This document shows positions 30,813 through 51,959 of a stretch of DNA of 64,000 nt, piece after piece. The notes beneath the pieces were generated by a model. It saw only the letters and a program-made list of their open reading frames with translations. It did not search any database and was not told where the DNA came from. Both the position numbers and the translations under genes were made by a program. The DNA is from a virus. Where the stretch lies: IMG/VR virus record IMGVR_UViG_3300013099_000017, positions 80,244 to 144,243 of that record; one strand, written 5' to 3'. Every line of letters starts with the position of its first letter. Position 1 is the stretch's first letter.

Positions 30813-33182
30813 ATGTCAGAAGAACTAATACTTACCAATTTAATACATAATGATGAATTTATAAAAAGAGCATTACCCTTCCTAAAATTATCATATTTTC
30901 AATATGAAGAAAATAAATTAATCTTTGAGCAATATGTCAGATACTACGCAAAGTATAATACAAAACCAACGGCTGAAACTCTTGCTCACGAAATAGCAGA
31001 AATAGAAGAAATTCGTGATGATACCCTTGAAAACACATTGGAAAGTTTGGGTGATCTTGAACAGGATGAAGAACCCAATATTGAATGGTTAGTAAATACA
31101 ACCGAGGGTTTTTGTCAAGAACGTGCTATTTATAATGCTATTCAAAATTCAATTGACATTATTGATGGTGTTGATGAAAAACACACTAAACACGCTATTC
31201 CCGATATTCTTAAAAAAGCCTTATCAATTTCATTTGATGTTAAGTTAGGTCATGATTATTTAGAAGATGCTGAAAAGCGTTTTGAATTTTATAATTTAGA
31301 TCATCCAAGAATCGAATTTGACATTGAAATGTTGAATAAAATTACCAATGGTGGTTGTCCAAGAAAAACTTTAAATGTTCTATTAGGAACCACTAATGTA
31401 GGTAAAGCTGAAAGTATTTTTACTAAATTATTAACTCCAACTGGAATTAAAATGTTTGGTGATTTAAAAGTTAATGATTATGTTTATGGTAGTGATGGAA
31501 ATCCAACTAAAATTATCAATACATATCCCCAGGGAGAATTACCATTATATGAAATAACATTCAAAGATGGTAGATCAACACAATGTTCATATGAACATCT
31601 TTGGAATGTATATAAAGGCGATAATAAAGAACAAATTACAATTGATTCTAATGAAATATTTAGGTTGATGGATTTAAAATATTACAGTAAAAGATTATGG
31701 ATACCATTATCTAAACCAATTAATTTCAATAAAGAATATAATTTTAATATAGATCCATATTTAATGGGTGTTTATTTGGGTGATGGTACTACAATGGCTG
31801 AATCTATTGGAATATCATCTAATGATAACCATATTATTGAAAAAATAAAAAATATCATTGATATTGATGATATGGATATCAAATATAAATCAAAATACGA
31901 TTATATAATTAAGTCTAGGTTCACTGGTGAAAATGAATATTTAACAGAGTTAAAACAATATAATTTATTTAAAGTGAAATCAGATAAAAAGTTTATTCCA
32001 AAAGAAATGATGAATTCTACAATTCAAAACAGATGGGATTTATTGACAGGATTGATTGATTCTGATGGATATTGTGGTAAACATGGAACATTACAATATT
32101 ATACTACAAGTGAACAACTTAAAAATGATGTAATTGATCTTGTAAGAAGTTTAGGTGGGATTGCCACAAGTAAAGATAAACAAACATATTGTAATGGAAA
32201 AAAAGGATTACCATCTTATGATATAATGATTAAAATTAATCCTGAAAATGGATTAAATATTAGTCCAAATAAAAAGAATGTGGAAATATTTAATAATAGA
32301 ATAAAAATTCCAAAACTAAAAATTGAATCAATAAAGAAAATACACAAAGAAGAATGTATGTGTATTAAAGTTGAAGCAAAAGATCATTTATATTTAACAA
32401 AGGATTTTATTGTTACTCATAATACATTGGGATTAGTACATATGGCAACTGCATATATGAATCTTGGTTATAATGTTGCATATATCACAGCGGAAATGAG
32501 TGAAGAAGCAATTGGTAATCGTGTTGATGCTAATGAATTTCAAGTTAATGTGAATGATGTAGAAGATATGGATTTCGATATCTTCATGAATAAAATTAAT
32601 GCCATTAAGAATAAAACAAAGGGTCGATTAAAAATACACGAATATCCTACAAGTACAGCTCATACAGGTCATATTAAGACATTATTACAAGAATGGCAAT
32701 TGAAGATGAATTTCACGCCAGATATTATAATGATAGATTATATAAATATTATGGCAAGTAGTAGGGTCAAGTTAGCTAATACCGGATCATATTTTTACAT
32801 TAAAGCCATTGCCGAAGAATTTAGAGCATTGGCAGTAGAAACAAATACAGTTTTATGGACTGCTACTCAATCAAATCGAGGCGGTGCTAATAATCCAGAT
32901 GTTGATTTAACTGATACGAGTGAATCATTTGGTTTACCTGCAACTGCTGATTTTATGTTGGCATTAATCAGAACAGAAGAATTGGATGCTTTGGGTCAAT
33001 TAATGATCAAACAATTAAAATCAAGATATGGCAATAAGGGCTATTATGAGAAATTTGTAATTGGTTCTAACATTAATACAATGAGTTGGTATGATGTTGA
33101 TGATACTGCTCAATTTGATGATGTTATTAAAGAAGATACAAAGCAAAAACATAAGGGGAAATTCGATGATTTTAAAATTTAA
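30813..33182 (+). CDS. T4 gp41-like replicative DNA helicase containing an intein
   Basis: Walker A GTTNVGK-(intein)-T, YITAEMSE, IMIDYINIM, TATQSNRGG, SESFGLPATAD. Confidence 0.95.
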   Translation: MSEELILTNLIHNDEFIKRALPFLKLSYFQYEENKLIFEQYVRYYAKYNTKPTAETLAHEIAEIEEIRDDTLENTLESLGDLEQDEEPNIEWLVNTTEGFCQERAIYNAIQNSIDIIDGVDEKHTKHAIPDILKKALSISFDVKLGHDYLEDAEKRFEFYNLDHPRIEFDIEMLNKITNGGCPRKTLNVLLGTTNVGKAESIFTKLLTPTGIKMFGDLKVNDYVYGSDGNPTKIINTYPQGELPLYEITFKDGRSTQCSYEHLWNVYKGDNKEQITIDSNEIFRLMDLKYYSKRLWIPLSKPINFNKEYNFNIDPYLMGVYLGDGTTMAESIGISSNDNHIIEKIKNIIDIDDMDIKYKSKYDYIIKSRFTGENEYLTELKQYNLFKVKSDKKFIPKEMMNSTIQNRWDLLTGLIDSDGYCGKHGTLQYYTTSEQLKNDVIDLVRSLGGIATSKDKQTYCNGKKGLPSYDIMIKINPENGLNISPNKKNVEIFNNRIKIPKLKIESIKKIHKEECMCIKVEAKDHLYLTKDFIVTHNTLGLVHMATAYMNLGYNVAYITAEMSEEAIGNRVDANEFQVNVNDVEDMDFDIFMNKINAIKNKTKGRLKIHEYPTSTAHTGHIKTLLQEWQLKMNFTPDIIMIDYINIMASSRVKLANTGSYFYIKAIAEEFRALAVETNTVLWTATQSNRGGANNPDVDLTDTSESFGLPATADFMLALIRTEELDALGQLMIKQLKSRYGNKGYYEKFVIGSNINTMSWYDVDDTAQFDDVIKEDTKQKHKGKFDDFKI
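31407..32423 (+). mobile_element. Class 3 intein with LAGLIDADG endonuclease (339 aa)
   Basis: Begins with Ala, ends VTHN before Thr; HLW in block B, Cys in block F (MCIKV), Thr in block G; LMGVYLGDG and LTGLIDSDG. Confidence 0.9.
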
Positions 33183-34212: not shown

Positions 34213-34220
34213 TATAAATA
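34213..34220 (+). promoter_or_regulatory. T4-type late promoter heading the internal-protein cluster
   Basis: TATAAATA upstream of 34242. Confidence 0.8.
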
Positions 34221-34241
34221 CTATAAAATAGGATAGTTTGA

Positions 34242-35060
34242 ATGAAATATAACAATATCACATATGATGAATATGTGGATGCTTTAAATGAAATTGCATT
34301 GCTTGACGAAAATGGTCAATTAAATGAGGGTATCTTAGATTCATTGTCGGGTTTAACTGGTAAGGTTGGTAAATTTATATCAACTGCTAAAAAAACTATG
34401 GGTGAACTTGTTGATTCTACTAAACTTGAAACCCGTGATATAATTAAAGCATTTAAAAATAGAGAAATTTTTTCAGTATTGAAGAAAGTTGGGTTTAGTA
34501 TTAAGAAATTACTGATGATGCTTAAAGCAGGACAAAAAGCATTAAATGGTGGTTTAAATAAAATATTCAAAGAAATCCACAATCATAAAATATTACAAAA
34601 AATTCATAGTGGTGTTATGACTGTTGATGAATTTATCAACAAATATCCCATTCTTAATAAAATAGGTGGAATTGCTGTTGCTGGAATTTTATTGTGGATA
34701 TGGTTAAATATGTCATTTACGGGAGCAAGTCTTGATTTTGACATTGATCAATCTTCTCTATTAGATGCATTAGCTGGCAATTATTCATTAGCCGATCTAT
34801 TTACATCCCCTACTGGTTTAAAAACAATAGCATTTTTAGCGGTTGGTTTATCCGGTATTTCTGTTATAGCTTATTTTCCTGTAACTGCATATAATCTTAC
34901 TATGAGTATTATCTATACAGGACTTAAAAAATCCAACTTCAAAGATCAATCCACTATGCACAAAATAAAACATCATATTTTTAAAATAGCAGAAAAATGT
35001 GATTATAAAATGTCATTTAAGCAATTTAATAAATACAGTAAAATACAGGAAGTATTATGA
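34242..35060 (+). CDS. Putative virion protein with hydrophobic helices
   Basis: N-terminal ALNE and QLNE cleavage-like sites; GGIAVAGILLWIWL and IAFLAVGLSGISVIAYF segments. Confidence 0.6.
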   Translation: MKYNNITYDEYVDALNEIALLDENGQLNEGILDSLSGLTGKVGKFISTAKKTMGELVDSTKLETRDIIKAFKNREIFSVLKKVGFSIKKLLMMLKAGQKALNGGLNKIFKEIHNHKILQKIHSGVMTVDEFINKYPILNKIGGIAVAGILLWIWLNMSFTGASLDFDIDQSSLLDALAGNYSLADLFTSPTGLKTIAFLAVGLSGISVIAYFPVTAYNLTMSIIYTGLKKSNFKDQSTMHKIKHHIFKIAEKCDYKMSFKQFNKYSKIQEVL

Positions 35061-35254
35061 TTACAAAATACAGAGAATATCTTATTGAAGGCGTAAATCA
35101 AGTTTTCAAAAAATTTCCGGATTACGAAAGTCGGAAAAAAGAATTAAATAGATTAGTTGATAAGCGTGGAGATCAATCTTCAAATTTATCTAAACAAGAA
35201 CAAAAAAACTATATCACATTAACTGATTGGTGGGATGAAAAGGGAAAAGATTAA
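35057..35254 (+). CDS. Putative internal head protein (CTS-like)
   Basis: MITKYREYLIE. Confidence 0.65.
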   Translation: MITKYREYLIEGVNQVFKKFPDYESRKKELNRLVDKRGDQSSNLSKQEQKNYITLTDWWDEKGKD

Positions 35255-35883
35255 TGAAAAGTTATAAAGCATTACAAGAAGAATTAAATAAGCCAAGTGA
35301 AGTATTAATTGAAGATATTATGTCAATCATTGCTATTCGTGGGGCAGATCAAACTCAATTATATGAAGCATTTGATGCTGATTGTGATCATATCTTAAAT
35401 GAAGGTATTATGGATGTTCTTAAAATGGATGTTCGTACCGTTGCCAAAAATGTCGATGGTTTGCTTAGTAAGGGTTTAAAAAAGGTTGGATTACACACAC
35501 ATAAGGGTAAGGGTATTATCTCTTATATAATGAGTGCAGGTAAAGGTGTGGGTAAAATGGTTTTAGCTGGTATCCGTGGTGATTCTGAAACAGTTAAAGA
35601 ACTTGCTCGAAGTGTTAAAAAAGAAGATGTTTTGGATTTTGTATTAAAACTTGACATGGCTACACAACACTTAATTACCGGACCAATTCATATGATCGAT
35701 GCTTGGACGGGTTGGCATATTGGGGCAAATTTAGAAAACGTTATTCGTGGTAAGGATGGTATCGTTGCGAAAATTAAAGGTGCTTTTCAGACAATTAAAC
35801 AAAATATTGGTCATGTGGTTGATAAAACCCGTGTGGCAGTATTTAATAAAGGTATTAGTCAACTTGAAGCAGAAATCAGTTAA
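35254..35883 (+). CDS. Putative internal head protein, related to 34242
   Basis: MKSYKALQEE; ILNEGIMD resembles QLNEGILD of 34242. Confidence 0.6.
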   Translation: MKSYKALQEELNKPSEVLIEDIMSIIAIRGADQTQLYEAFDADCDHILNEGIMDVLKMDVRTVAKNVDGLLSKGLKKVGLHTHKGKGIISYIMSAGKGVGKMVLAGIRGDSETVKELARSVKKEDVLDFVLKLDMATQHLITGPIHMIDAWTGWHIGANLENVIRGKDGIVAKIKGAFQTIKQNIGHVVDKTRVAVFNKGISQLEAEIS

Positions 35884-35955
35884 TTGGAACTAATTAATAA
35901 ATAATTGCTTTAATATGTAAAATATGTTAAACTGAGGGGATAAAGGAGAATATTA

Positions 35956-36123
35956 ATGATATCATATGAAGAATATCTTAATATCAACAGAGGTATTGTT
36001 GGTGTTTATCATACAGAAGATGTAGCAAAGAATCAAAAAAAGAAATTAAAGGTATATTATTCCGGTTTAAATGTTCAACGAAGTAAATCAGGTGATTATA
36101 TTCTTTACGGAATACCATTATAA
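35956..36123 (+). CDS. Small CTS-like protein not in the ORF track (55 aa)
   Basis: AAGGAG SD; MISYEEYLN. Confidence 0.5.
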   Translation: MISYEEYLNINRGIVGVYHTEDVAKNQKKKLKVYYSGLNVQRSKSGDYILYGIPL

Positions 36124-36139
36124 ATTAAGGAAAAAACAA

Positions 36140-36322
36140 ATGAAAAAGAATTATAAAGAGTTTTTGGAAGAACAAAGAGAAGTTCTAACAGAAAGTGAAA
36201 AATGGGCTAAATCAGAAGCTATGAAAGTTTTAAATGCTCATTTCAAGAAAATGGAACACAAAATGGAAGTATCGGAAGCGGAATCATTTCAAAATTTCAT
36301 CAATAAAATGAAAAAAGGTTAA
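36140..36322 (+). CDS. Putative internal head protein (CTS-like)
   Basis: MKKNYKEFLEE..VLTE; AAGG SD before ATG 36140. Confidence 0.65.
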   Translation: MKKNYKEFLEEQREVLTESEKWAKSEAMKVLNAHFKKMEHKMEVSEAESFQNFINKMKKG

Positions 36323-36327
36323 GTAAA

Positions 36328-36837
36328 ATGCAACAAAATGCTTACTGGATCAATCCAAGGGGCAAAATCCTTGATATTGGAATGGGAACACACATTAATC
36401 AGATTATTAAATCACCAAAATCGTTTGGATTGACAGAACGTTATATTCGTAATGTCTATGAAAAATTTGGTGAGCCAATGAGTCTTGAAGGTAAAGCCCG
36501 TGAACAAATCATGTTGGAAGTTATCAAGGATGGATTTGTTCGTATCAGATTGGTTCCAAATAGATTTTGGTTAGTCAATGCTAATAAATATGATCGAAAA
36601 TTAAAAAAAGCATTATCTGTTTGGGCTGGTGATGCCAAAGATGTAAAAAATGCAGGTAAATTTATGCCTGTCAAAATTGTTACTAACAGTGAAGTAGTAA
36701 GCACATATGATGTTAATGATTTATATTATGAAAAACATTTGAATGAATCTGATAACATATCCGGTTATAATCCTATTATGGTTGAAAGTGTTGAAGATTT
36801 CAAATATTCAAAATATCAACAACTTAGGAACTTATGA
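36328..36837 (+). CDS. Hypothetical protein in the late cluster
   Basis: AYWINPRG..H..GFVRIR; no N-terminal tag, HLNE near C-terminus. Confidence 0.7.
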   Translation: MQQNAYWINPRGKILDIGMGTHINQIIKSPKSFGLTERYIRNVYEKFGEPMSLEGKAREQIMLEVIKDGFVRIRLVPNRFWLVNANKYDRKLKKALSVWAGDAKDVKNAGKFMPVKIVTNSEVVSTYDVNDLYYEKHLNESDNISGYNPIMVESVEDFKYSKYQQLRNL

Positions 36838-37424
36838 AAACATTTAAACAATTTAATAAATCAGGTAGAAATGTAGAAATTTCAAAGTATTCATTATCAG
36901 ATGCTATTGAATATTCACAAAGTCAATTCCGTGAATATGGTAAAGACTTATATGAAGAAATACCAAACTTTGATAAGAACTTTGAAATAGCTCAAATGAA
37001 AGCGAGTACGGGTAGAACATTAAGAAAAGATATGCCTGTAATTTCAAGAAAAGATATTGCTGATTTCAAAGTATTTCTTAAAGAAAAAGGTGTTAAATTT
37101 AAATTAAAGAAACAGGAAGTTAGTAAATTTCATCCAATTCAAAAACAAATTTATTTAAATAAATCTATTGATATTATTGCTAAATTTAGTGTTCAAGATT
37201 CTAAAAACTTCTTAACTGATTCTAAAACTGTTAGTGTATTATCGAGAGATAATTATCTTATTGATGGACATCATAGGATGCTTACAGGGTTATTAATAAA
37301 TCCTAAAATGAAATTTAATACCATTATTGTTGATTTACCTGCAATTGAATTATTACCACTAGCGTTAGAATTTTCAGATGATCATACTAGTAATACACGA
37401 AACGAATCATATGAAAAAGTTTAA
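36834..37424 (+). CDS. ParB/Srx-like protein with CTS-like N-terminus
   Basis: MKTFKQFN; HPIQKQIY; YLIDGHHR. Confidence 0.75.
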   Translation: MKTFKQFNKSGRNVEISKYSLSDAIEYSQSQFREYGKDLYEEIPNFDKNFEIAQMKASTGRTLRKDMPVISRKDIADFKVFLKEKGVKFKLKKQEVSKFHPIQKQIYLNKSIDIIAKFSVQDSKNFLTDSKTVSVLSRDNYLIDGHHRMLTGLLINPKMKFNTIIVDLPAIELLPLALEFSDDHTSNTRNESYEKV

Positions 37425-37839
37425 AGAATATTTAAAAGAAGAATGGTATCAAACATATAAGATACCAAGTTTAAAAGATCCATTAAATATCTTTAAAAAT
37501 CCATCAAGAAAAGAAATAATGGAATTAGCAAAACAAGATTTTGATAGTTTTAGAGTATTATTGATGGATAATGGTGATGTTTATGCATGGTCAAAAGCAA
37601 TTCATGCACAAGCACATAAAGCATTAAAATTGAATGATAAATTTATTCCTGCTTATATTGAATTTGCTGGAAATACTGGTGTAATTACTATTACAGATTT
37701 TATAAATAAATCATATTGGGGTGATCATCGTGAAATGGTTGCTGAACAAGTTAGAACCAACAAACATTTAAAAAAATTATTCAATAATATAAAAATTGGA
37801 TATTACAACAAACGTTCAACCGGAGATTGGGAACAATGA
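37411..37839 (+). CDS. Putative internal head protein (CTS-like)
   Basis: MKKFKEYLKE. Confidence 0.7.
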   Translation: MKKFKEYLKEEWYQTYKIPSLKDPLNIFKNPSRKEIMELAKQDFDSFRVLLMDNGDVYAWSKAIHAQAHKALKLNDKFIPAYIEFAGNTGVITITDFINKSYWGDHREMVAEQVRTNKHLKKLFNNIKIGYYNKRSTGDWEQ

Positions 37840-38213
37840 AAAAATTTAAAGATCTATTAACTGAAATAACATTACAACGTGCAGTAACAAAAGAACCAAT
37901 ATTGAATAAAATTAAGAAATTATTTCAAAATAAATTCGATAAAACAAATAATAATTTATTTTTTATGGATAAAAAAGATGCGATTAAACGATTAAAATCT
38001 TATGGATTATCTGATGAAGAAATCAAAACGATTGAAACTGTTGCCTATTCTGAAATGAAAAAGATTATGACAAAATATAATATTGCTTTTCGTGGAAATG
38101 ATCCATTTGTACTTCATGGATTTAATTTATTTTGGGAGCGTAGTTTTGGTGATGAAAAAACTGCCGATAAAGCATATAAAGAATATTTAAATAACATTAA
38201 GCAGAAACTATAA
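37836..38213 (+). CDS. Putative internal head protein (CTS-like)
   Basis: MKKFKDLLTE. Confidence 0.7.
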   Translation: MKKFKDLLTEITLQRAVTKEPILNKIKKLFQNKFDKTNNNLFFMDKKDAIKRLKSYGLSDEEIKTIETVAYSEMKKIMTKYNIAFRGNDPFVLHGFNLFWERSFGDEKTADKAYKEYLNNIKQKL

Positions 38214-38371
38214 TGAAAAGTTTTAAAGAATTAAACGAAAATGTATTGACAAAAGAAATGGATTTTGTTGATGATAGTTCATCAAAATATAATTATTTAG
38301 ATCAACTTGATAGTCATTTAAGTGGTATAATTACAGTATCAGAAGCTCTTGAAAGGGAATATAAAAAATGA
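38213..38371 (+). CDS. Small CTS-like protein not in the ORF track (52 aa)
   Basis: TAATG overlap; MKSFKELNE. Confidence 0.6.
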   Translation: MKSFKELNENVLTKEMDFVDDSSSKYNYLDQLDSHLSGIITVSEALEREYKK

Positions 38372-38384
38372 GTGATATAGATAT

Positions 38385-39326
38385 ATGAAAAAATTTAAAG
38401 CATTTTTAAAAGAACAACCATCCGAAGCTCAGATAAAAGCTGGGAATTATAAGAAAAAACATATGCGATTTTGTACTTGTGATATAGCAATTGAAAATCG
38501 TAAAGGGTCAGTTCGTTCTGGTACTGATCCCGATGGTAAAGAATGGTCTGTAAAAATGCCGTTTGATTATGGTTATATTAAAAGAACCAATGGTGCTGAT
38601 GGTGATGCTGTTGATGTGTTTGTTGGTCCCGATAAAAAGAGTGAACGTATCTTTACAATTAATCAAACTGATGATAAAGGAAAGTTTGATGAACATAAAG
38701 TAATGATGGGTTTTACTGACAAAAAGGATGCAGAAAAAGGTTATCTATCTGCATACGATAAGGGTTGGTCTAACTATGAGAAAGATATTATAGAAATGGA
38801 TATTGATACTTTTAAAAAGTGGTTGGATGTTAAATCACAAAAGAAACCAATGACCGAAAGTTTTGTATTATTACTTAAAGAAAATACCGAGATAAATGGT
38901 TTAGCTCAAATGAAAAAATTTGCTAAAAGTGCAATTTTAAAAATGTCCCAAACAGAACAGTTATCTGAAATGTCATTTGCTCAAATGAAATCAGTTGAGC
39001 AACATGCTGATGATATTTTTTCATCATTAAACATTGATGTTAAGTTAAGGGGTCATTTCTTTGATAGATTGAATGATGCAAGAAATGGTCGTGAAATTAC
39101 CGAAGCTGAAATGATACATTTATTTAATGCCACATTTAAAAAGTATGGGGCTAAAATAGCTCATATGTCAAAGGGTCATGAAGCTGTTATATTTGATCAT
39201 ATGAATAATATTAATGTTCCATTTTTAATAGACTTTGATAATGTTACCGGACAACTGGTATTGATACCAAAAACGGTTATGAGAAAAAAGAATTTTCTAA
39301 CAAGAACACAAAAATTAAAGGTGTAA
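38385..39326 (+). CDS. CTS-tagged two-domain protein: polyvalent-type inorganic pyrophosphatase domain plus possible RNase-like domain
   Basis: MKKFKAFLKE; PSEAQIKAGNYKK..IENRKGS.RSG..YGYI..DGDAVDVF; C-terminal GHFFDRLND.R..KTVMRK. Confidence 0.75.
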   Translation: MKKFKAFLKEQPSEAQIKAGNYKKKHMRFCTCDIAIENRKGSVRSGTDPDGKEWSVKMPFDYGYIKRTNGADGDAVDVFVGPDKKSERIFTINQTDDKGKFDEHKVMMGFTDKKDAEKGYLSAYDKGWSNYEKDIIEMDIDTFKKWLDVKSQKKPMTESFVLLLKENTEINGLAQMKKFAKSAILKMSQTEQLSEMSFAQMKSVEQHADDIFSSLNIDVKLRGHFFDRLNDARNGREITEAEMIHLFNATFKKYGAKIAHMSKGHEAVIFDHMNNINVPFLIDFDNVTGQLVLIPKTVMRKKNFLTRTQKLKV

Positions 39327-39328
39327 AA

Positions 39329-39601
39329 ATGAAATCATATAAAGAATTTAACAAATTATCAGAAGGATTTGCCAATAAATTAAGGTCTGGTAAAGTTCCG
39401 GTTGGTGAATATAGATTTAAATATGTATCAAAGGGAAATGTTGATTTTATATCAAATTCAACTAAACATAGAAAAAGTTTAAAAGTAATTGAAAAAGGTA
39501 GAGATTATGTTATCATTAATGGTAATGCAAATGATCATTCATCTTTAATTACATCATTGCAATCATTTGGGGATATTAACGGTTATGTCGAAGAAGAATA
39601 A
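39329..39601 (+). CDS. Putative internal head protein (CTS-like)
   Basis: MKSYKEFNKLSE. Confidence 0.65.
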   Translation: MKSYKEFNKLSEGFANKLRSGKVPVGEYRFKYVSKGNVDFISNSTKHRKSLKVIEKGRDYVIINGNANDHSSLITSLQSFGDINGYVEEE

Positions 39602-39943
39602 CAAATACGATCAATTTTTAGATAACATTGAAGATCCTGCCGAAAAAATGGTAAAGGAAAATAAAATTCCTGTTGATTATAAATTGATCCATAATATGAC
39701 AAAAGAAATATGGTCATATGAAAATGAAAACGGTGATCTTAGTGAAATATTTAAAAGTAAAGATGAAGCATTATTAAGTATTTGGAATGAAAAATATTTA
39801 AATGAATCATCTAAAGAAAATGGGATGGTTGGTGAAGCGATTGATATATTATCATTAACTAATACAAGAATAACGGATTCTTCCATTACATCTAAATTAG
39901 AAAAAATCATAAACGAATTAAGTTCGATCCAAAGGAAAATCAA

Positions 39944-40249
39944 ATGAGTAAATATAAAGAATATTTAAACGAAGCAAATAGTGGTAAATATGAAATTTAT
40001 CATGATTCATTAACAAGTGCCGTTCAAGAAATGGAATCATATGTTGTTAAAAATGGTTATACGTTGGATGATGAAGAAATGGCTGAAACCGTAGGGTTTG
40101 GTCCAAAAAAACCTTCTGGTGGAAAAACTAACCGATATACCATGTCGTTATATAAGGATGGTAAAAAGCAACGTAAGGCTATTCATTTCCAAGTTTATAA
40201 TCGTGAAACAAAACGAAACACTTTTGAGTTAAATATGTATATTAGATGA
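39944..40249 (+). CDS. Putative internal head protein (CTS-like)
   Basis: MSKYKEYLNE. Confidence 0.7.
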   Translation: MSKYKEYLNEANSGKYEIYHDSLTSAVQEMESYVVKNGYTLDDEEMAETVGFGPKKPSGGKTNRYTMSLYKDGKKQRKAIHFQVYNRETKRNTFELNMYIR

Positions 40250-40692
40250 AAAAATTTAAACAATTCTTAAATGATTACAGTAAAAAAGCTCCAGTATTGG
40301 AGGCAAAGAATGTCTATGCTGTCAATTTTACATTTAGAGATTTAAAGAAAATCATACAACTTGAAGATTCACCAAATGATTATATTGATCAATTAACAAC
40401 GATCATGAAATTGAGTAATTCAAAAGGTGGTGCAACCATTAATGAAATGATATTTAATGGTTGGGAAAAACAAATCAAGAAATATACCAAAGACATTATA
40501 TTAATTGAAAAATTATCAAATCGTTTCATTAATGGTGATAAATCTGAAACAATTATTGAAATTTATAAAACCTTTCCTGATGATAAGGAATGGATTAAAG
40601 AATTAAATACAAATTCTAATAAAATTAATAAAGAATTAAAAACCCCATTAGAAGAATTATTTTTAGCATTAGGTAAAAAAGAATGGATATGA
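40246..40692 (+). CDS. Putative internal head protein (CTS-like)
   Basis: MKKFKQFLND..VLE. Confidence 0.65.
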   Translation: MKKFKQFLNDYSKKAPVLEAKNVYAVNFTFRDLKKIIQLEDSPNDYIDQLTTIMKLSNSKGGATINEMIFNGWEKQIKKYTKDIILIEKLSNRFINGDKSETIIEIYKTFPDDKEWIKELNTNSNKINKELKTPLEELFLALGKKEWI

Positions 40693-41201
40693 AATCATTT
40701 AAACAATTTAATGAGGGTAATTTATCTAAACTTAAATCACTAAAAAAGTCCAAAACAGATAACATCAAATCATTTGATAGATTAGGTAAGGGTGATAAAA
40801 TTACAATTGGTAATAAAAATATCATTTTATCTAATAGAGTTGAATTGAAAACACATCCTTATGAACTTGATGGATGGTATATCGCATTAGCACAAGATGG
40901 AAATGATTCTTATTATATTACAAAATCTAAAAATTCAGATACTTATAAATTATATAAAGCATTAAAATTATCACAAGTTGGTTCAGAATATGAACCAATT
41001 GCAAAATCACCAAAATTAACTAAAAATAAAATTATTATAGAAGATATAAAAATTCCTATAAAAGTTGGTGATATTGTATTGGGTGGTAAATTTAAAAACA
41101 AAAAAATCAAAGTTAAATCTATTGGTAAAAATGAAAAAGGTGATATCACCATTAACAATAGACCATTATTAAAATTTAGAATAATCGATCAGGATAAATA
41201 A
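40689..41201 (+). CDS. Putative internal head protein (CTS-like)
   Basis: MKSFKQFNE; C-terminal IPIKVGDIVLGGKFKNKKI module after IIE. Confidence 0.7.
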   Translation: MKSFKQFNEGNLSKLKSLKKSKTDNIKSFDRLGKGDKITIGNKNIILSNRVELKTHPYELDGWYIALAQDGNDSYYITKSKNSDTYKLYKALKLSQVGSEYEPIAKSPKLTKNKIIIEDIKIPIKVGDIVLGGKFKNKKIKVKSIGKNEKGDITINNRPLLKFRIIDQDK

Positions 41202-41533
41202 TGATGCAAGACATATATCAAGTTATAGTTCGGGGAAATTTTTGGGGTGGTCGATACTATGAAGATAGTTTGGATTCTATTTTTGTATTGGCTGATGATA
41301 AGCAAGATGCTGTTAATATAGCAAAATCAAATATTGAACAAGTTGAAGTTCATTTTAGAAATAAAAGGTATTATGGTGGAAAGTTGGCTATTGCTAAACA
41401 CGATAAATATAAATTTAAAGAACGTAATATTTGTGTTGCCAAAACATCATACCAAAAAGTTTATAATAAAACATTAACAAAACACGGAAACTTTGAAAAA
41501 GTAAATCTAAACACATTAGGGACAAATGAATGA
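41201..41533 (+). CDS. Hypothetical protein
   Basis: Coupled ORF within the late cluster; no tag. Confidence 0.65.
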   Translation: MMQDIYQVIVRGNFWGGRYYEDSLDSIFVLADDKQDAVNIAKSNIEQVEVHFRNKRYYGGKLAIAKHDKYKFKERNICVAKTSYQKVYNKTLTKHGNFEKVNLNTLGTNE

Positions 41534-42243
41534 ATACATTTAAACAATATTTAATTGAAGCTGGACAAGGGGCAGGACAACTTGAATTAGTAAAAACAGA
41601 CGTTAAAAAAGCAAGGGAATATGCTGAAAAAGATTTTCAAAAATATGATCGTGATTTAGATGAACAAATTCCTGATTTTGATAAGAATTATTTATTTGCT
41701 CAAAAACAAGCAGGGTCAGGTAAAACACAACGTAAAGATATGCCTGTAATTGAAGAAAAAGATGTTAAGGATTTACAGCGTAGACTAGAAAATGGTCATA
41801 TTGATATTAAATCACCACATCCTAAAAATACTAAACATCCTTTTCCAAAAGGACTAACACAACAAACCGGACATCAATGGTTGGAAAATGGATTAAAGCG
41901 TCATGATGGTAGTATTAAAGATGATATCGTAAAAGTTAAGATGGAGCAAGTTACCGTTGGGTCATTACATCCAATACAAAAACAAATATATTTTGATAAG
42001 TCAATTAATCCAATTGCAGAAAATGGTGCTGTTAAATCAAAAGCATTTATGACAGGAAAAAATACTACTTTCATTATGTCAAAAGATCATTACATCATTG
42101 ATGGACATCATAGATTTTTAGCTTCTGTATTATTAGATCCAACAATGAAAGTTAATTCATTGGTTATTGATTTACCAATTAAAGATTTACTACCATTAAC
42201 ATTATCCTACTCAGATGCAGTAGGAAACAAAAGGAACGCATAA
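41530..42243 (+). CDS. ParB/Srx-like protein with CTS-like N-terminus, paralog of 36834
   Basis: MNTFKQYLIE; RKDMPVI, HPIQKQIY, IIDGHHR. Confidence 0.8.
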   Translation: MNTFKQYLIEAGQGAGQLELVKTDVKKAREYAEKDFQKYDRDLDEQIPDFDKNYLFAQKQAGSGKTQRKDMPVIEEKDVKDLQRRLENGHIDIKSPHPKNTKHPFPKGLTQQTGHQWLENGLKRHDGSIKDDIVKVKMEQVTVGSLHPIQKQIYFDKSINPIAENGAVKSKAFMTGKNTTFIMSKDHYIIDGHHRFLASVLLDPTMKVNSLVIDLPIKDLLPLTLSYSDAVGNKRNA

Positions 42244-42244
42244 C

Positions 42245-42511
42245 ATGGCATTTACACATATACCAAATAACTCAGATTGGGAATACGATAACGCACCTCC
42301 TGACCCTGGAGGAAAACAATCTAATTTGTGGAATAAACAAGTTAATGGTATTCGTGTTAATTCTGGTGGTGATGAAGTTTACTCACATTGTCGAAAAATT
42401 GGAACAAGTGTACAAACTTCCGGTGAGTTAAATAAATCTTATTGGGATAATCAAAGAATATCATTTAATGTTACTGGTGGTTCCGGTGAATCAGTACATG
42501 TTGCTAATTAA
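42245..42511 (+). CDS. Hypothetical protein
   Basis: Coupled ORF ending the late cluster. Confidence 0.65.
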   Translation: MAFTHIPNNSDWEYDNAPPDPGGKQSNLWNKQVNGIRVNSGGDEVYSHCRKIGTSVQTSGELNKSYWDNQRISFNVTGGSGESVHVAN

Positions 42512-42516
42512 CATTG

Positions 42517-42524
42517 TATAAATA
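42517..42524 (+). promoter_or_regulatory. T4-type late promoter
   Basis: TATAAATA upstream of 42541. Confidence 0.75.
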
Positions 42525-42540
42525 ATTACATGGAATTAAT

Positions 42541-42978
42541 ATGAAAAATCTCTTTGAAGATGGTGAACCAACAAATAGTGTAAGTGCTGGATCAATGGAT
42601 TCACATGAAGCAACTGATGGTAAAAGAAAAAAAGAAAAAACAAAAATAGCAAGGCGTAAAAAAATGAAAAAATATAAAGAATATCAGGAATCATTGAAAG
42701 AAGATCATGTTGATGATGGTTGGGTTCAATATCAATATGAAGATTCAACATCAATGAAAAAAGCAGTTGTTAATTTAAATATTTCACCAGAAGATTATGT
42801 TATGTATCCTGTTGAAAAATATATTGAATTTAAAAAAGAAAGTGATTTGGAAGCAGTTTTAAAAATCATTGACGATCCACATCATCAAAAACCATTCCAT
42901 CCATATCACGAACATGAACATGATGATCATATAAGTGATTATGAATACGATTATGAAGAAGAAGATTTAGAATTATAA
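42541..42978 (+). CDS. Acidic/His-rich protein with internal CTS-like motif
   Basis: MKNLFE and internal MKKYKEYQESLKE. Confidence 0.6.
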   Translation: MKNLFEDGEPTNSVSAGSMDSHEATDGKRKKEKTKIARRKKMKKYKEYQESLKEDHVDDGWVQYQYEDSTSMKKAVVNLNISPEDYVMYPVEKYIEFKKESDLEAVLKIIDDPHHQKPFHPYHEHEHDDHISDYEYDYEEEDLEL

Positions 42979-43842: not shown

Positions 43843-44847
43843 ATGGCAGATCCGTACATAGACATGAAGTATATTCGATTGTTATCAACACAATTGAGAA
43901 ATTACAAGGAAAAGAAAAATAATTTAATTAATTTTTCGTGTCCGATATGTGGTGATTCTGAAAAAGATAAGCTCAAAGCAAGAGGTTATATCTATGAAAA
44001 ACAAAACAAATATCAATATAAATGTCATAATTGCAATGTTGGTATGTCTGCTGGAAATTTAATTAAAGCTGTTAATCCGGAATTATGGAAAGAATGGAAA
44101 GCTGAGAAATTTAAAAGTAAATATAAGCCAAAACCAAAATTCAACAATTCATTATTTAAGAATAAACCAAAGATACTTGATTATGTATTAGGTATGGAAT
44201 CTTTAGATAAATTAGATGATGATCATGTTGCTGTTCGTTATGTTAAAAGTAGATTAATACCCAAAGAACAATATCATAGAATTTATTACACGGATAATAT
44301 AAATAAAATTGGTGTTCAATTGGGATATGATGATAAATTTCCTGTTGCTGATATGATTGTATTTGAATTTATCAATATGGATGGGAGAACTACACACATT
44401 CAAGGTCGATATATTGATCCACAATCAAAAGAATTTAGATTTGTTACATTGGATATGATGAAAGATCAACCAAAAATATTTGGTTTAGAAACAATCGATC
44501 CAACTAAAAAAGTATATATTGTTGAAGCACCAATTGACAGTTTATTTTTACCAAACTGTATTGCTTATGCAGGATCAAGCCTAAATACATTTACACCCGA
44601 ATATGATGATTTTACAATCATTTTGGATCGAGAACCTAAAAATTCAGTAATTGTGAAAATTATGATGAAATGTATTGAAAAGGGATTCCCCATTGCTATT
44701 TTACCAAATGATTTAGACGGTAAAGATATTAATGATTATGTGAAGTGGGGATATGATCTCATTCCCTTAAAGGAATTGATTGACAATAATACCTTTCAGG
44801 GAATGAAAGCGAAATTAAAAATGACATTATGGAGAAAAGGAATTTGA
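43843..44847 (+). CDS. T4 gp61-like DNA primase
   Basis: CPICGDS..KARGY..CHNC Zn finger; TOPRIM VEAPIDSLF, ILDREP, KDIND. Confidence 0.95.
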   Translation: MADPYIDMKYIRLLSTQLRNYKEKKNNLINFSCPICGDSEKDKLKARGYIYEKQNKYQYKCHNCNVGMSAGNLIKAVNPELWKEWKAEKFKSKYKPKPKFNNSLFKNKPKILDYVLGMESLDKLDDDHVAVRYVKSRLIPKEQYHRIYYTDNINKIGVQLGYDDKFPVADMIVFEFINMDGRTTHIQGRYIDPQSKEFRFVTLDMMKDQPKIFGLETIDPTKKVYIVEAPIDSLFLPNCIAYAGSSLNTFTPEYDDFTIILDREPKNSVIVKIMMKCIEKGFPIAILPNDLDGKDINDYVKWGYDLIPLKELIDNNTFQGMKAKLKMTLWRKGI

Positions 44848-45464: not shown

Positions 45465-46150
45465 AAAATTCAATTAAAAATATTGATGCTACTATAGGAT
45501 TAAAAAATATACCAAGTTCTTCTGTGGATTTAATTGTTACTGATCCACCATATCCGGTCATATCTGGTGGTCCAGGGGATAAAACATCCCCACAAGGGGT
45601 AATAAAAAGTAATGATGGTAAAATATTTAAACATAATGATATACATATCAAAGAATGGATATATGAATGTTATAGAGTATTAAAACCAAATACACATATA
45701 TATATTATGGTGAATTTTTTAAATTTGTCGGAATATTTAATAGAAATACAAAAAGCAAAATTTAAATTACATAATTTACTTGTATGGAAAAAGAACAATG
45801 TCACACCAAATCGTTGGTACATGAAAAATGCAGAATACACTATATTTGCATATAAAGGTTCAGCTAAAAGAATTAATAATGTTGGTCAAAGTAATACAGT
45901 ACATGAAATAAAAAATATTACTGGCAATAAAGTACATCCTACTGAAAAACCAATAGAATTAATGGATTTATATATTAATAATTCATCAAATAAAAATGAT
46001 TTAGTTTTAGATCCGTTTATGGGGTCGGGTAGTGTTGCACTTTCATGTATTAACAATAAAAGGAATTATATTGGGTTTGAAATAGATAAAGATTATTACA
46101 ATATAATTAATAATAGAATAAAAAATAATATAAACACTAAACTATTTTAA
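45461..46150 (+). CDS. DNA methyltransferase, beta-class N6A/N4C
   Basis: DLIVTDPPY, HPTEKP, VLDPFMGSGS, IGFEID. Confidence 0.93.
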   Translation: MKNSIKNIDATIGLKNIPSSSVDLIVTDPPYPVISGGPGDKTSPQGVIKSNDGKIFKHNDIHIKEWIYECYRVLKPNTHIYIMVNFLNLSEYLIEIQKAKFKLHNLLVWKKNNVTPNRWYMKNAEYTIFAYKGSAKRINNVGQSNTVHEIKNITGNKVHPTEKPIELMDLYINNSSNKNDLVLDPFMGSGSVALSCINNKRNYIGFEIDKDYYNIINNRIKNNINTKLF

Positions 46151-46161
46151 GAAAATATATT

Positions 46162-49100
46162 ATGACAGATGAAACATTTAGATTAATGCATGAAGCAGAA
46201 ATATTACACAAAAGGATTAAAGAGTTAATGGAAAACACAAAATTTCAGGATGAATTCAGTAAAGAAATATGGCAAAGTACATATAAAGATCACAGTGATG
46301 AAAACGTTGATGATACATTTAGACGGGTAGCAACATATGTAGCAAGCGTTGAACCATCATTTGAATTACAATTAGAATGGCAACAAAAGTTTTATGATGC
46401 TTTAACTGATTTCAAAATCACGGCTGGTGGAAGAATTTATTCAAATGCAGGTACAGAGTGGGCTAAAAAGGGGACAGGTTTATTAAATTGTTATGTTGCT
46501 CCAAGAAAAAATAAAGATATTGATAGTCTTAATAATATCTTAGATACGGTTAAAGATCAAAGCAATACATTAAAATCCGAAGGGGGTTGGGGAGAAAATT
46601 TCTCTTATATTAGACCAAGGGGAGGTTTTATTCATGGTGTTGGTGTAGAAACTCCAGGAGCAGTTAAATATATGGAAATATTTGACAAAACTTCTGATGT
46701 TATTACAAGTGGTTCAGGTCGTAAATCAAAAAATAAAAAAGCTAAAGGTAAAATCCGTAAAGGTGCAATGATGGGTGTATTAGATTGCTTATCAGGAAAT
46801 ACATTAATTGATACAATAGATGGTAAAATTGCTATTAAAGATTTAGTTGGAAAAAATCCATATCTATATTGTACTGATGGTAATGGTAATATATTTGTTA
46901 GACAGGCACAATTAGTATGGTCAAAAGGTATTAGAAAAACAATTAAAATAACTATGGATGGTCATGAAACATTAGAATGTACACCAGAACATGAAATAAT
47001 GCTATCAAATGGTTCTTATAAAATGGCAAAAGATTTAACAACTGGTGATAGTTTATCAGTATTAAATCGAAAAATGTATAATAAACAATATATATATTTA
47101 GGTGTATCAGGAAATAGAATTAAAATAGCAGAACATCATGCTACTTATGAAATGAAATATGGTGAATATCCTACATGTACAGGTAAAAAAAGAAAAGGTT
47201 GGATGACATTAGCACATCATAAAGATGAATGTAAATGGAATAATCATCCTGATAATATTGAAAAAATGACATTATCAGATCATGCTAAATTACACGACAA
47301 CATTTTAAGAGAAAATCAAAAAAGAATTTCTAAAGAAAGAAAGGGGAAAAGTTGGGATGAATATTATGGTAAAGAACTAGCAGATCGTATTAAAAAATCA
47401 TCAAATTTCAATCATAAAGTAGTTAAAATTGAAACGCATATTGAACAAGAAGTGTTTGATATTGCTATGCCAGAGTATCATAATTTTGTAGCAAATGGGG
47501 TATTTGTACATAACTGTTGGCATCCAGATATTTTTGAATTTATTACAGCAAAACAAAATGCAGGAAGATTGACCAAATTTAATATGTCAGTAAATTGTAC
47601 AAATGAATTTATGGCAAGAGTAATTGAAATTGAAGATAATGGTTGTGATGAATTTGATACAATTGATATTTGGGATCTTAAATTTCCGGATACCACTTAT
47701 TCAAAATATAGTGATGAATGGGATGGTGATTTAGAATTATGGGAATCTAAGGGATATCCAACTATTATACATGATACCGTTAGTGTTAAGCACTTGTGGA
47801 ACATTATAATGGAATCTACTTATAATCGTGCAGAACCTGGAATTTTGTGGTGTGATCGTGCTAATGAATTTAACCCTGCTTATTATATTGAAAAAATTCG
47901 TGCAACAAATCCATGCGGTGAACAATTTCTTGCTGAGAGTGGTGTATGTGATTTAGCATCATATAACTTAACTCAGTATATTGAAGAAGATTCAAATGGT
48001 GGACATTATTTCAATTTTGAGAAATTTGAAAAATATATTTCCGTTGGTGTAAGATTTTTAGATAATGTTAATACTGTATCAAATTCACCATTACCAGAAT
48101 ATAAAGATTCTATGTTAAATAAACGCAGAATTGGTTTAGGTATTTTAGGGTGGGGATCATTGTTATTCATGTTAAAAATTCGTTTTGGTAGTACGGATGC
48201 TAATACTTTACGTGATAAAATAATGCAAACATTAGCAACTAAATCATATGAATATAGTATTGATTTGGCTATTGAAAAAGGTATGTTTACTTATTGTGAT
48301 CCAATTAAACATGCTGATGGTAAATTTATTCAAAATCTACATTTATCACAAGATTACATGGATAAATTAAGAACTACAGGTATTAGAAATAGTTCATTAT
48401 TATCATGTCAGCCTACCGGAAACACATCTATTTTTGCTAATATTGTGAGTGGCGGGATTGAGCCTGTATTCATGCCAGAATATATCAGAACTGTTATCGT
48501 TAATAGTATGCCCGAAGAAATTTCACATGTTTGTCCAAAATGGTATGAGGGTGAATGGAATGAAACCGATGTGTTTTCATTTACCAAAGAAGGTGATGAA
48601 GAAATTCTTAAAGGTAAAATGAATGGCATCATGTATAAAATTGACAAAAATCGTGGATTAACAAAAGAAGTATTGTGTGAAGATTATGGTGTACGTTGGT
48701 TAAAAGCCCGTGGTGAATATGATCCAACTGCTGATTATATTGTAACTACAACTGAATTAACTGCTGATGATCATTTAAATGATTTAAAAGGATTTGCAAG
48801 ATGGGTAGATAGTGCGTTAAGTAAAACAATTAATTTACCAAATGATTATTCCTTTGAAGATTTTAAAAACGTTTATCTTGATACTTACAAAACGGGATAT
48901 ATTAAAGGTATAACTACTTATCGTGCAGGTACAATGACAACTGTATTGAGTTCAGTTGATGATCAAATAAAAGAAGAAGAAATTATTCTTGATGATGTTA
49001 AAATGCCTGATAGTGCCTCAGCTACAATTAAAACAATTAAAGCCGAAGGTAAAAAATGGTATTTAACGATTGTTTATCATACAGATAGTGATAAACCATT

Positions 49101-49503
49101 TGCATTATTCGTTAAAACAAATTCAAATGAAAAAACAGTTAATGCTAATAATGCTATTGAAGTATTAACAAAATTAGCATATAAAAAAGGTATTCCGGAA
49201 CAACATATTGAAACAACAATATCCAAAATAAATCAAGATAGTAATGCCAGTAAAATTACACGTATTATTTCATTGATGTTAAGACATGGTGTTTTAATTA
49301 AAAACATTGTACTTGCATTGGATACCATTGAAGATGTATATGTTGGTTCATTCTTATTTCAAATTAAGAAATTTTTAAGTTCTTATGTTAAGGATGGGGA
49401 AAAAGTTGAAGGGGCTAAATGTGAGAATTGTGGATCTGATAAGATTGAATTTTCAGAAGGTTGCTTCAAATGTGTGGAATGTGGAAGTTCTAAATGTGGT
49501 TAA
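46162..49503 (+). CDS. nrdJ: Ribonucleotide reductase, class II (NrdJ-like), with intein
   Basis: GRIYSNAG, LLNCYV, TNPCGEQ, CDLAS, QPTG, KTINLP; TSCPD-like C-terminus and Zn ribbon; no ATP cone, no adjacent nrdB. Confidence 0.85.
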   Translation: MTDETFRLMHEAEILHKRIKELMENTKFQDEFSKEIWQSTYKDHSDENVDDTFRRVATYVASVEPSFELQLEWQQKFYDALTDFKITAGGRIYSNAGTEWAKKGTGLLNCYVAPRKNKDIDSLNNILDTVKDQSNTLKSEGGWGENFSYIRPRGGFIHGVGVETPGAVKYMEIFDKTSDVITSGSGRKSKNKKAKGKIRKGAMMGVLDCLSGNTLIDTIDGKIAIKDLVGKNPYLYCTDGNGNIFVRQAQLVWSKGIRKTIKITMDGHETLECTPEHEIMLSNGSYKMAKDLTTGDSLSVLNRKMYNKQYIYLGVSGNRIKIAEHHATYEMKYGEYPTCTGKKRKGWMTLAHHKDECKWNNHPDNIEKMTLSDHAKLHDNILRENQKRISKERKGKSWDEYYGKELADRIKKSSNFNHKVVKIETHIEQEVFDIAMPEYHNFVANGVFVHNCWHPDIFEFITAKQNAGRLTKFNMSVNCTNEFMARVIEIEDNGCDEFDTIDIWDLKFPDTTYSKYSDEWDGDLELWESKGYPTIIHDTVSVKHLWNIIMESTYNRAEPGILWCDRANEFNPAYYIEKIRATNPCGEQFLAESGVCDLASYNLTQYIEEDSNGGHYFNFEKFEKYISVGVRFLDNVNTVSNSPLPEYKDSMLNKRRIGLGILGWGSLLFMLKIRFGSTDANTLRDKIMQTLATKSYEYSIDLAIEKGMFTYCDPIKHADGKFIQNLHLSQDYMDKLRTTGIRNSSLLSCQPTGNTSIFANIVSGGIEPVFMPEYIRTVIVNSMPEEISHVCPKWYEGEWNETDVFSFTKEGDEEILKGKMNGIMYKIDKNRGLTKEVLCEDYGVRWLKARGEYDPTADYIVTTTELTADDHLNDLKGFARWVDSALSKTINLPNDYSFEDFKNVYLDTYKTGYIKGITTYRAGTMTTVLSSVDDQIKEEEIILDDVKMPDSASATIKTIKAEGKKWYLTIVYHTDSDKPFALFVKTNSNEKTVNANNAIEVLTKLAYKKGIPEQHIETTISKINQDSNASKITRIISLMLRHGVLIKNIVLALDTIEDVYVGSFLFQIKKFLSSYVKDGEKVEGAKCENCGSDKIEFSEGCFKCVECGSSKCG
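46786..47514 (+). mobile_element. Intein with HNH homing endonuclease (243 aa)
   Basis: D/CLSGNT start, TPEH block B, FVHN/C end; EHH..HHKDECKWNN.PDN..H. Confidence 0.9.
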
Positions 49504-49536
49504 AAACTAAAACTAAATAATGAGGATTATTATATT

Positions 49537-51166: not shown

Positions 51167-51173
51167 AAAAGTG

Positions 51174-51232
51174 TTGACATCATAATTCTAATAATGTAAA
51201 CTGTTCTTGTGGTCGGGAATTCTTAACCACAA
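51174..51232 (+). promoter_or_regulatory. sigma70 promoter followed by TTGTGGT leader hairpin
   Basis: TTGACA-N17-TAAACT; TTGTGGT 51207 pairs with ACCACAA 51226. Confidence 0.75.
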
Positions 51233-51259
51233 ACCTTTTAATTATTATGGAGAAACATT

Positions 51260-51382
51260 ATGATCTATTTCACAACACGTACACTTGCCCGTACATTTTC
51301 TCAAAAAGCTGATAAATACAAAGTGACCGATAATGGTAAAAATCAGGATGTTGGCAGACGTTGGGGCGTTAAAGTTCTTTGA
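51260..51382 (+). CDS. Small basic protein not in the ORF track (40 aa)
   Basis: GGAGA SD; MIYFTTRTLARTF..RRWGVKVL. Confidence 0.55.
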   Translation: MIYFTTRTLARTFSQKADKYKVTDNGKNQDVGRRWGVKVL

Positions 51383-51435
51383 TTCATATATGATGCATAT
51401 ACCCCCAATATGTAAGCTGTATAATACAATTGGGG

Positions 51436-51866: not shown

Positions 51867-51959
51867 ATGTAAACACTACTTACCATTTTGACCAAATTAA
51901 CTTAAAATGTAAAGAGAGATTAACAATGAAATACCCAAATACGAAAGGGGAACATTAAC

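Follow-up and report, generated by a model that had tools for sequence, protein, structure and literature searches.

In phage T4, the ten N-terminal residues of the internal protein IpIII suffice for head loading (PMC9026906). Within this capsid targeting sequence (CTS), residues 4 and 7 serve targeting and residues 8 and 10 serve processing, and proteins with Asp at position 10 are still targeted and loaded but no longer cut (PMC9026906). In the T4 record, IpII and IpIII open with M-K-T-Y-Q-E-F-I-A-E; IpI opens with M-K-T-F-K-E-F and is cleaved further down. T4 has three internal proteins (Ips), all of them injected anti-restriction factors, and at least 10 occur across the T-even phages (PMC12373910). 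They are described as basic and DNA-associated, and the CTS has been explicitly proposed as a general loading device (PMC9026906). Here we analysed a 64,000-nt stretch (the window) that forms the right-hand part of the 144,243-bp IMG/VR contig IMGVR_UViG_3300013099_000017. A block of adjoining genes in this window, together with several dispersed genes, opens with a peptide that closely resembles the T4 CTS and is called the tag below. Positions are window coordinates unless given as genome positions, and genes are named by their start.

A CTS-like peptide opens about 19 otherwise unrelated genes

The tag spans about 10 residues, with the consensus M-K-x-[FY]-K-x-[FY]-L-x-E, and is conserved at exactly the positions that are functional in T4 (4, 7, 8 and 10). 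An earlier note, made from the DNA alone, had likened it to the T4 peptide, and the likeness held: the aromatic residues at 4 and 7 and the L-x-E at 8–10 agree. In an alignment of 19 copies, position 4 is aromatic in every copy, position 5 is Lys in 17, and position 7 is aromatic in 16 and Leu in the other three. Leu occupies position 8 in 10 copies and Glu occupies position 10 in 10, with most of the others having Glu at 9, 12 or 13. Position 2 is Lys in 12 copies, position 3 is Lys or Ser, position 6 is Glu or Gln, and position 9 is variable. A hydrophobic-x-Glu site lies within residues 6–13 in most tagged proteins.

All 17 tagged starts listed in the earlier note were recovered, each at its coordinate and with the reading given there. 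We count 18–19 tags in about 165 kb of a 207.6-kb genome (the longer assembly described below). Thirteen clear tags are tightly packed in the block, within 35057–42978, along with one ambiguous tag (42664, inside the 42541 open reading frame, ORF); four are dispersed (12237, 53268, 55079 and, on the minus strand, 54244) and one more stands on a head-core gene. Three further genes carry weak variants (34242, 35956 and 39585). A tag-like start at genome position 76244 was left out of the count as an RNA-ligase-type N-terminus, since its RB43 neighbour starts similarly. Separately, a minus-strand ORF at genome position 20811 has a candidate tag-like start.

The earlier note had also proposed a motif scan of gene starts. 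The relaxed motif M-x(1,2)-[FY]-[KQR]-x-[FYL] was over-represented there, at 17 of 295 crudely called starts compared with 1.8 expected from its internal frequency (Poisson tail ∼1e-11, by arithmetic), and 12 of the 17 lie within 35254–41530. A strict DNA pattern matched the 144-kb contig 24 times, compared with 8 matches for a reversed control. Orthologues retain the tag while their cargo diverges, as seen in the 41530, 35254 and 53268 families and in the coliphage RB43 homologue of 12237, which likewise opens with a CTS-type peptide.

The phage encodes a T4-type head protease and scaffold

The contig has 29% GC and a CheckV completeness of 79%, and nearly all of its genes lie on the plus strand. 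PHROG and Pfam matches identify a T4-like myovirus, with homologues of the baseplate wedge proteins gp6, gp7 and gp8 and a T4-type replication set (UvsW, gp46 and gp43 polymerase). A gp41-like helicase (30813–33182) and a gp61-like primase (43843–44847) flank the gap that the tagged block occupies. Ribonucleotide reductase and NAMPT with NMNAT are also encoded. By the gp43-type polymerase, the nearest isolates are cyanophages at only 41% identity, and the lineage is therefore distant and uncultured; the phage is a marine relative of T4. Megablast of the block against isolate phages gave no match.

Proteins of the CTS class require a phage-encoded S77 prohead protease and a gp22-type core. Neither gp21 nor gp23 was found in the 144-kb contig. 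The same phage is assembled at greater length in ENA contig k141_2061234 (ERZ27227322; 207,615 bp), to which three window or contig proteins map exactly and with which sampled 40-mers are collinear. Walking upstream of the baseplate genes in this assembly, the head module reads gp19, portal, a 45-aa gene, a 141-aa gene, Peptidase_S77, T4_CASP scaffold and Gp23. Both required components are thus present, the gp21-type protease as Peptidase_S77 (PF03420; phrog_207, E 3e-72) and the gp22-type scaffold as T4_CASP (PF25623; phrog_237, E 3e-58). The predicted gp23 maturation site is L-N-E followed by A-G, and several tags show the identical context. The 141-aa gene itself opens with the tag. It has the position of T4 gp68, equal length, an acidic-then-basic build and weak similarity to gp68, and no PHROGs family was found for its product. 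In IMG/VR locus L015, from another T4-like contig, two tagged minus-strand genes (6889 and 7389; 167 and 196 aa) lie between portal and protease, the place of the tagged 141-aa core gene here.

The block is probably a late transcript and its products are basic

In this phage the octamer TATAAATA, a T4-type late promoter core, lies 29–46 nt before gp20, gp22, gp23 and a gp80-like gene, and therefore serves as the late promoter core. The earlier note had assigned a late promoter to each array gene; this proved too broad, as within the block TATAAATA precedes 34242 and 42541 only (Table 1). The genes inside the block overlap or abut, with gaps of −17 to +16 nt and one of 72 nt, so the block is probably a single late transcript. 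In two unrelated large phage contigs, TATAAATA likewise lies ∼20 nt upstream of the 41530 orthologue. The placement of TATAAATA is thus suggestive of late production. A scan of the block for sigma-70 promoters and terminators stayed at chance level (77 found, 79 expected). A repeated palindromic element, a putative promoter-operator with the consensus ATATCCCATTGTGGGTAT, has 19 copies in the window compared with 3.8 expected; all lie within 7967–28308 and 45645–63867, outside the tagged block, and none lies between 28.3 and 45.6 kb.

The block proteins are basic, with a median isoelectric point (pI) of 9.2 compared with 5.4 for other plus-strand genes. A pI above 8.5 was found for 74% of block proteins and 23% of the others (P = 1.4e-5). 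This composition fits the description of the T4 internal proteins.

Table 1. Genes and promoter cores of the tagged block and of the dispersed tagged loci, in window coordinates.
Feature	Position	Strand	Remarks
TATAAATA late promoter core	34213..34220	+	21 nt before first block gene
First block gene, 272 aa	34242..35060	+	Hydrophobic segments; variant leader ending L-N-E at residue 17; no family match
Tagged, 65 aa	35057..35254	+	Tag shifted one residue; L-I-E at 9–11
Tagged, 209 aa	35254..35883	+	No cargo family; orthologues keep tag
Weak tag variant, 55 aa	35956..36123	+	Aromatic residues 4 and 7 and L8 present, Glu10 absent
Tagged, 60 aa	36140..36322	+	Tag shifted one residue; ENA contig calls same start
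Untagged, 169 aa	36328..36837	+	Overlaps start of first ParB-like gene
Tagged ParB/sulfiredoxin-like paralogue 1, 196 aa	36834..37424	+	D-G-H-H-R motif; phrog_2859 E 2e-18; first Glu site lost, second kept
Tagged, 142 aa	37411..37839	+	No cargo family
Tagged, 125 aa	37836..38213	+	No cargo family
Tagged, 52 aa, acidic	38213..38371	+	
Tagged InPase protein	38385..39326	+	InPase residues 14–147; C-terminal domain 195–313
Tagged, 90 aa	39329..39601	+	L-S-E at 10–12
Weak tag variant, 120 aa	39585..39947	+	Aromatic pair displaced four residues
Tagged, 101 aa	39944..40249	+	
Tagged, 148 aa	40246..40692	+	Asp replaces Glu at position 10
Tagged, 170 aa, pI 9.9	40689..41201	+	
Untagged, 110 aa	41201..41533	+	Overlaps start of second ParB-like gene
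Tagged ParB/sulfiredoxin-like paralogue 2, 237 aa	41530..42243	+	Two-site leader, Glu10 and Glu19
Untagged, 88 aa	42245..42511	+	
Second TATAAATA	42517..42524	+	16 nt before 42541
145-aa ORF, ambiguous start	42541..42978	+	First 41 residues resemble T4 61.1 family (shortened tag); full in-frame tag at 42664
TATAAATA and tagged P-loop-like protein, 312 aa	12202 (promoter), 12237–13175 (gene)	+	TATAAATA 27 nt before gene
TATAAATA and tagged ART-like protein, 234 aa	53233 (promoter), 53268–53972 (gene)	+	TATAAATA 27 nt before gene
Tagged, 91 aa	53969..54257, start 54244	-	TATAAATA at 54250–54257, 5 nt before start
Tagged, 70 aa	55079..55291	+	I-L-E at 11–13; GATAAATA-type site upstream
ART, ADP-ribosyltransferase.

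Two block genes bear traces of tags away from their own starts. The last 16 residues of the 34242 product (35010–35057) form a fossil CTS-like peptide directly before the next tagged start, which looks like the scar of a recombination or deletion between tag-coding sequences. In the 42541 ORF, either two cargo genes have become fused or the start is mis-set. Two untagged genes, 36328 and 41201, each precede a ParB-like gene; their products are unrelated to each other, and a common immunity-gene pairing therefore has no support from similarity.

Several tagged proteins resemble enzyme domains

The clearest cargo domain is that of 38385. The earlier note had proposed a pyrophosphatase among the cargo, and this product matches Pfam InPase (PF18823, E 6e-52) at 175.4 bits, above the curated cut-off of 26.8, over model positions 1–134 of 135, making it a strong candidate for an InPase-type pyrophosphatase. 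Its PHROG matches fall inside giant virion, DarB-like and minor-head proteins, and in IMG/VR locus L053 its C-terminal domain is a protein of its own, with its own tag. When the InPase protein was used to look for related loci, the only match was an unrelated high-GC phage that encodes a giant polyvalent protein; the same search with the primase gave no match.

Genes 36834 and 41530 are paralogues (38% identity) with an invariant D-G-H-H-R in their alignment. The 41530 family has 292 metagenomic homologues, and its leader consists of the tag followed by A-G-x-x-A-G-K-L-E, with E10, G12, G16 and E19 nearly invariant; this two-site layout is the same as in T4 IpII. An AlphaFold model of 41530 has a predicted local distance difference test score (pLDDT) of 79.7 and a disordered stretch over the first 12 residues (pLDDT <50), as expected for a removable leader. 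The earlier note had called these proteins ParB-like. Fold searches point to ParB or sulfiredoxin (Srx): among VIA rows for residues 131–237 the top 8 are Srx or ParB-N (Z 3.8–5.3) with unrelated rows below Z 3.2, nearly all of the better Foldseek rows are the same two folds (E 0.028 or worse), and Atlas feature matches give ParB_N and ParBc_2 at 0.93–0.94. Sequence support is weaker, with Pfam ParBc_2 matching 9 of 41 members of the family at E 0.003, below its cut-off, and the structural scores are modest. A ParB/sulfiredoxin fold is thus assigned to 36834 and 41530 with moderate confidence. Tblastn of 41530 against isolate phages gave two partial matches only, in megaphage records. As a separate observation, viral Atlas clusters annotated with HD_4, CTP_transf_like, Sod_Cu or NT5C align weakly with the model from its N-terminal part (template modelling score 0.41–0.55); the helical region behind the leader is perhaps a common adaptor to which various enzymes are attached.

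The 53268 product probably has a fold of the ADP-ribosyltransferase (ART) superfamily. Its model (pLDDT 82) has ART-superfamily neighbours in ∼45 of 50 VIA rows, including MbcT, PARPs, Arr, RES, ParT, DarT and diphtheria-type toxins, at Z up to 5.7; Foldseek E values are 0.17 or worse. The domain has no Pfam match, and neither an invariant Glu nor the classic ART catalytic triad is evident among the invariant residues of the family. In one Tara homologue, ART-PolyVal adjoins this domain.

Two further assignments of the earlier note fared less well. The P-loop kinase, 12237, matches Zeta_toxin below the cut-off (E 0.003; 17.5 bits, cut-off 22.3) and has the loop G-A-G-S-G-K-G in place of the usual Walker A G-K-S/T; its better match, phrog_5268 (E 2e-50), is a family with no assigned function. 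We call it, weakly, a P-loop-like protein. None of the array products showed an RNase-like domain. The remaining array products gave no family in Pfam, PHROG or NCBIfam scans, and PDB sequence searches with 41530, 12237, 53268 and the ParB-like family profile gave no match.

The domains had also been described as those normally fused in giant polyvalent proteins, which share InPase- and ParB/Srx-type domains and are predicted to be delivered to the host (Iyer et al. 2017, PMC5512222). This link stands for InPase and for the 53268 domain with its ART-PolyVal neighbour, and is plausible for the ParB/Srx domains. The polyvalent architecture itself, with two or more fused effector domains, was not seen: each array product has at most one recognisable domain, with 38385 holding InPase and one further domain.

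Other features of the window

Relatives of the gp41-like helicase (789 aa) match its residues 3–199 and 538–789 only, and a weak Hom_end match was found; the gene probably contains an intein that includes a homing endonuclease (∼340 aa). The large subunit of ribonucleotide reductase (46162–49503, 1113 aa) contains Intein_splicing and an HNH endonuclease segment. A 410-aa protein (61803–63035) has the Pfam DruA domain, a component of the Druantia defence system. Two adjacent small paralogues (7430–7660, 76 aa; 7744–7965, 73 aa) both begin M-D-K-Y-K and both contain a Y-F-F-G-F motif; they were rejected as CTS-like on account of an acidic second residue and the lack of a Glu site.

T4 gene 61.1 and recurrent sites of tagged genes

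In T4, the strict DNA pattern gave 14 matches compared with 5 in the control, and the real matches were ipI, ipII, ipIII and 61.1. Gene 61.1 (54 aa, annotated 'hypothetical'; AF158101 18966–19130, minus strand of locus L128:3467–3631) lies directly before the primase gene 61, and its first ten residues are a perfect CTS-type peptide that ends in I-K-E. Proteins of 58–63 aa before the primase in IMG/VR loci L047:2999 (minus) and L122:1461 (plus) show the same build as T4 61.1, a tag followed by a G/A/S/T-rich stretch and a basic tail. T4 thus has a gene with a CTS-type start in its own helicase–primase gap, and we therefore view the block in the window as an expansion at a hotspot shared with T4.

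The strict tag pattern was found in at least 120 IMG/VR stretches, and the tag is common in uncultured ocean phages. Tagged genes can be dense on small contigs, numbering 7 within 5.4 kb, 5 within 4.7 kb and 4 within 1.5 kb. Tagged genes recur downstream of gp41-like helicases, just upstream of the primase, and between portal and protease. Among isolates, matches in RB43, KVP40, S-RIM8 and Aeromonas phage 65 were at or near control level, and those in P-SSM2 and HTVC008M were modestly above it. A literature search returned no paper that names T4 gene 61.1 as an internal protein, none with these tag strings and none describing tagged arrays of such size.

Head loading as the preferred explanation

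We consider it likely that the tagged genes form a large set of head cargo that is targeted and trimmed through a CTS, as the earlier note had proposed. In silico, this reading draws on the tag match, the gp21-type protease, the gp22-type scaffold, the late promoters, the basic products and the tag-keeping orthologues. Because ∼19 otherwise unrelated, mostly basic proteins open with the T4 head-loading peptide, this phage probably packs a larger and more enzymatic protein cargo than T4. It likely also injects such cargo, although we hold injection, and any particular function of the cargo, with less confidence than loading and trimming. The mechanism is already known; its scale and its enzyme cargo are new, and so are the two-site leader of the IpII type and the hotspot in common with T4 61.1.

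In the proposed sequence of events, each product would open with a CTS of ∼10 residues, the block would be transcribed late from TATAAATA at 34213, and the dispersed genes would be transcribed from their own copies. The tag would confer affinity for the gp22-type scaffolding core on which the prohead shell assembles. The gp21-type protease would then cut after the Glu of L/I-x-E, freeing the mostly basic mature proteins beside the DNA in the head. At the next infection these would exit along with the DNA and be the first to act in the newly infected cell. The cargo would comprise the InPase pyrophosphatase, two ParB/sulfiredoxin-fold proteins (NTPase or nuclease), the ART-fold and P-loop proteins and about a dozen small proteins with no recognised fold, most likely anti-defence or host-takeover factors. 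The tag, its match to T4, the protease and scaffold genes, the promoters and the basic composition are read from the sequence itself; core binding, cutting, copy number, injection and the roles of the cargo are what we infer.

Several observations weigh against this explanation. Three block genes (36328, 41201 and 42245) have no tag, and 9 of the 19 tags lack a Glu exactly at position 10, one of these having Asp. The fold scores of the cargo are modest (best Z 5.3 and 5.7). A promoter stands before the first block gene rather than before each gene, and by arithmetic ∼72 copies of TATAAATA are expected by chance on both strands in DNA of 29% GC, compared with 34 seen. With replication genes on both sides of it (helicase and primase), the block may also be reached by early or middle read-through transcription, including from the helicase gene. 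Finally, the phage is uncultured and known here from its genes alone.

The main alternative, which we regard as unlikely, accepts that the tag leads to the prohead core and holds that most tagged proteins are assembly or scaffold accessories, degraded or expelled like T4 gp67, gp68 and gp22, and not effectors that are injected. In this phage, the core protein at the gp68 position bears the same tag, and many of the array products are small proteins in which no fold could be recognised. Most of the T4 core proteins, moreover, end up as fragments that exit the head, and IPIII has an effect on head assembly (PMC9026906). Such a role sits poorly with the InPase (E 6e-52), ParB/Srx and ART-like domains, which have no obvious assembly function and are found in polyvalent proteins with predicted host delivery. 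The array products also have one or two cleavage-type sites, clustered N-terminally, whereas gp22 has such sites throughout. In addition, the injected anti-restriction activity of all three T4 Ips favours effectors (PMC12373910).

It is less probable still that the shared opening is a nucleic-acid feature, either an A-rich enhancer of translation initiation or a recombination linker for shuffling cassettes. The codons after the ATG are A-rich, and most array genes are translationally coupled and lack a clear Shine-Dalgarno sequence. Yet what is conserved is the peptide and not the DNA: upstream sequences differ, and synonymous or conservative changes preserve the residues, with Ser encoded by AGT or TCA, Leu by CTT, TTA or TTG, and Phe exchanged with Tyr. 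The peptide also equals the experimentally defined T4 tag and is retained across orthologues at 35–70% identity. The fossil tag at the end of 34242 and the in-frame tag inside 42541 do suggest recombination at tag sequences, and gene-shuffling mobile cassettes are known in T4-like phages (PMC2839356); the tag could have a role in recombination in addition to targeting. Least probable of all is that the peptide addresses proteins to the membrane, a replication complex, a chaperone or another partner outside the capsid: the block does sit between helicase and primase genes and its first product (34242) appears membrane-bound, but the tag lacks hydrophobic character, agrees with the T4 CTS and also opens a core-position protein encoded next to the protease, and the late promoters and basic composition fit head cargo.

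Loading of CTS-tagged cargo into the head, if correct, has wider consequences. Proteins injected with the DNA act before any phage gene is read, and are therefore prime candidates for blocking bacterial immunity. With the tag, candidate counter-defence factors of the first wave could be listed cheaply for uncultured ocean phages; this phage alone supplies ∼19 candidates, several of which have predicted enzyme folds. The tag might also be used to load foreign proteins into the capsids of T4-like phages other than coliphages. More tentatively, at slightly less than even chances in our judgement, uncultured T4-like phages may use an 'unbundled' alternative to polyvalent proteins, in which a portable 10-residue tag recruits genes at hotspots (the helicase–primase and portal–protease gaps) to an injected first-wave arsenal. 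If this is true, the injected proteome of thousands of marine phages would become readable from sequence, and the pyrophosphatase, ParB-type NTPases or nucleases and ART-like enzyme of this phage would act before phage gene expression. T4 61.1 and its relatives upstream of the primase would then be an overlooked, widely conserved internal protein.

Comparison with known systems

The nearest counterpart is the set of T4 internal proteins, with which the window phage shares the ten-residue N-terminal tag, the unrelated basic cargo behind it and the gp21-type protease with a gp22-type scaffold; the second leader site of IpII also occurs in the 41530 family. The two differ in number (∼19 tagged genes compared with three named Ips in T4, or four if 61.1 is counted) and in layout, with 13–14 in one operon-like helicase–primase block compared with the ipI and ipII–ipIII loci of T4. 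Several cargos of the window phage are predicted enzyme domains of 200–310 aa, whereas those of T4 are small inhibitors, and this phage is represented only by its genes. T4 Alt, a head-packaged, gp21-trimmed and injected ADP-ribosyltransferase, resembles 53268 with its late promoter, tag and ART-like model neighbours. However, no sequence similarity between Alt and 53268 was seen, and the fold match is weak (Z ≤5.7) with no evident catalytic triad.

The inner-body and ejection proteins of phiKZ and SPN3US, compared here by description, are likewise many head-packed proteins cut by the head protease at Glu-ending sites, but they lack a common 10-residue T4-type tag and these phages are not T4-like (PMC5694885, PMC9026906). 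Polyvalent proteins, including P1 DarB and DdrB, draw on the same domain stock and are presumed early effectors delivered with the DNA. They join 2–15 domains in a single giant chain, from which an internal peptidase releases them (PMC5512222), whereas the window phage has separate small tagged proteins. This suggests that domains strung into giant polyvalent proteins elsewhere can be delivered as separately addressed units.

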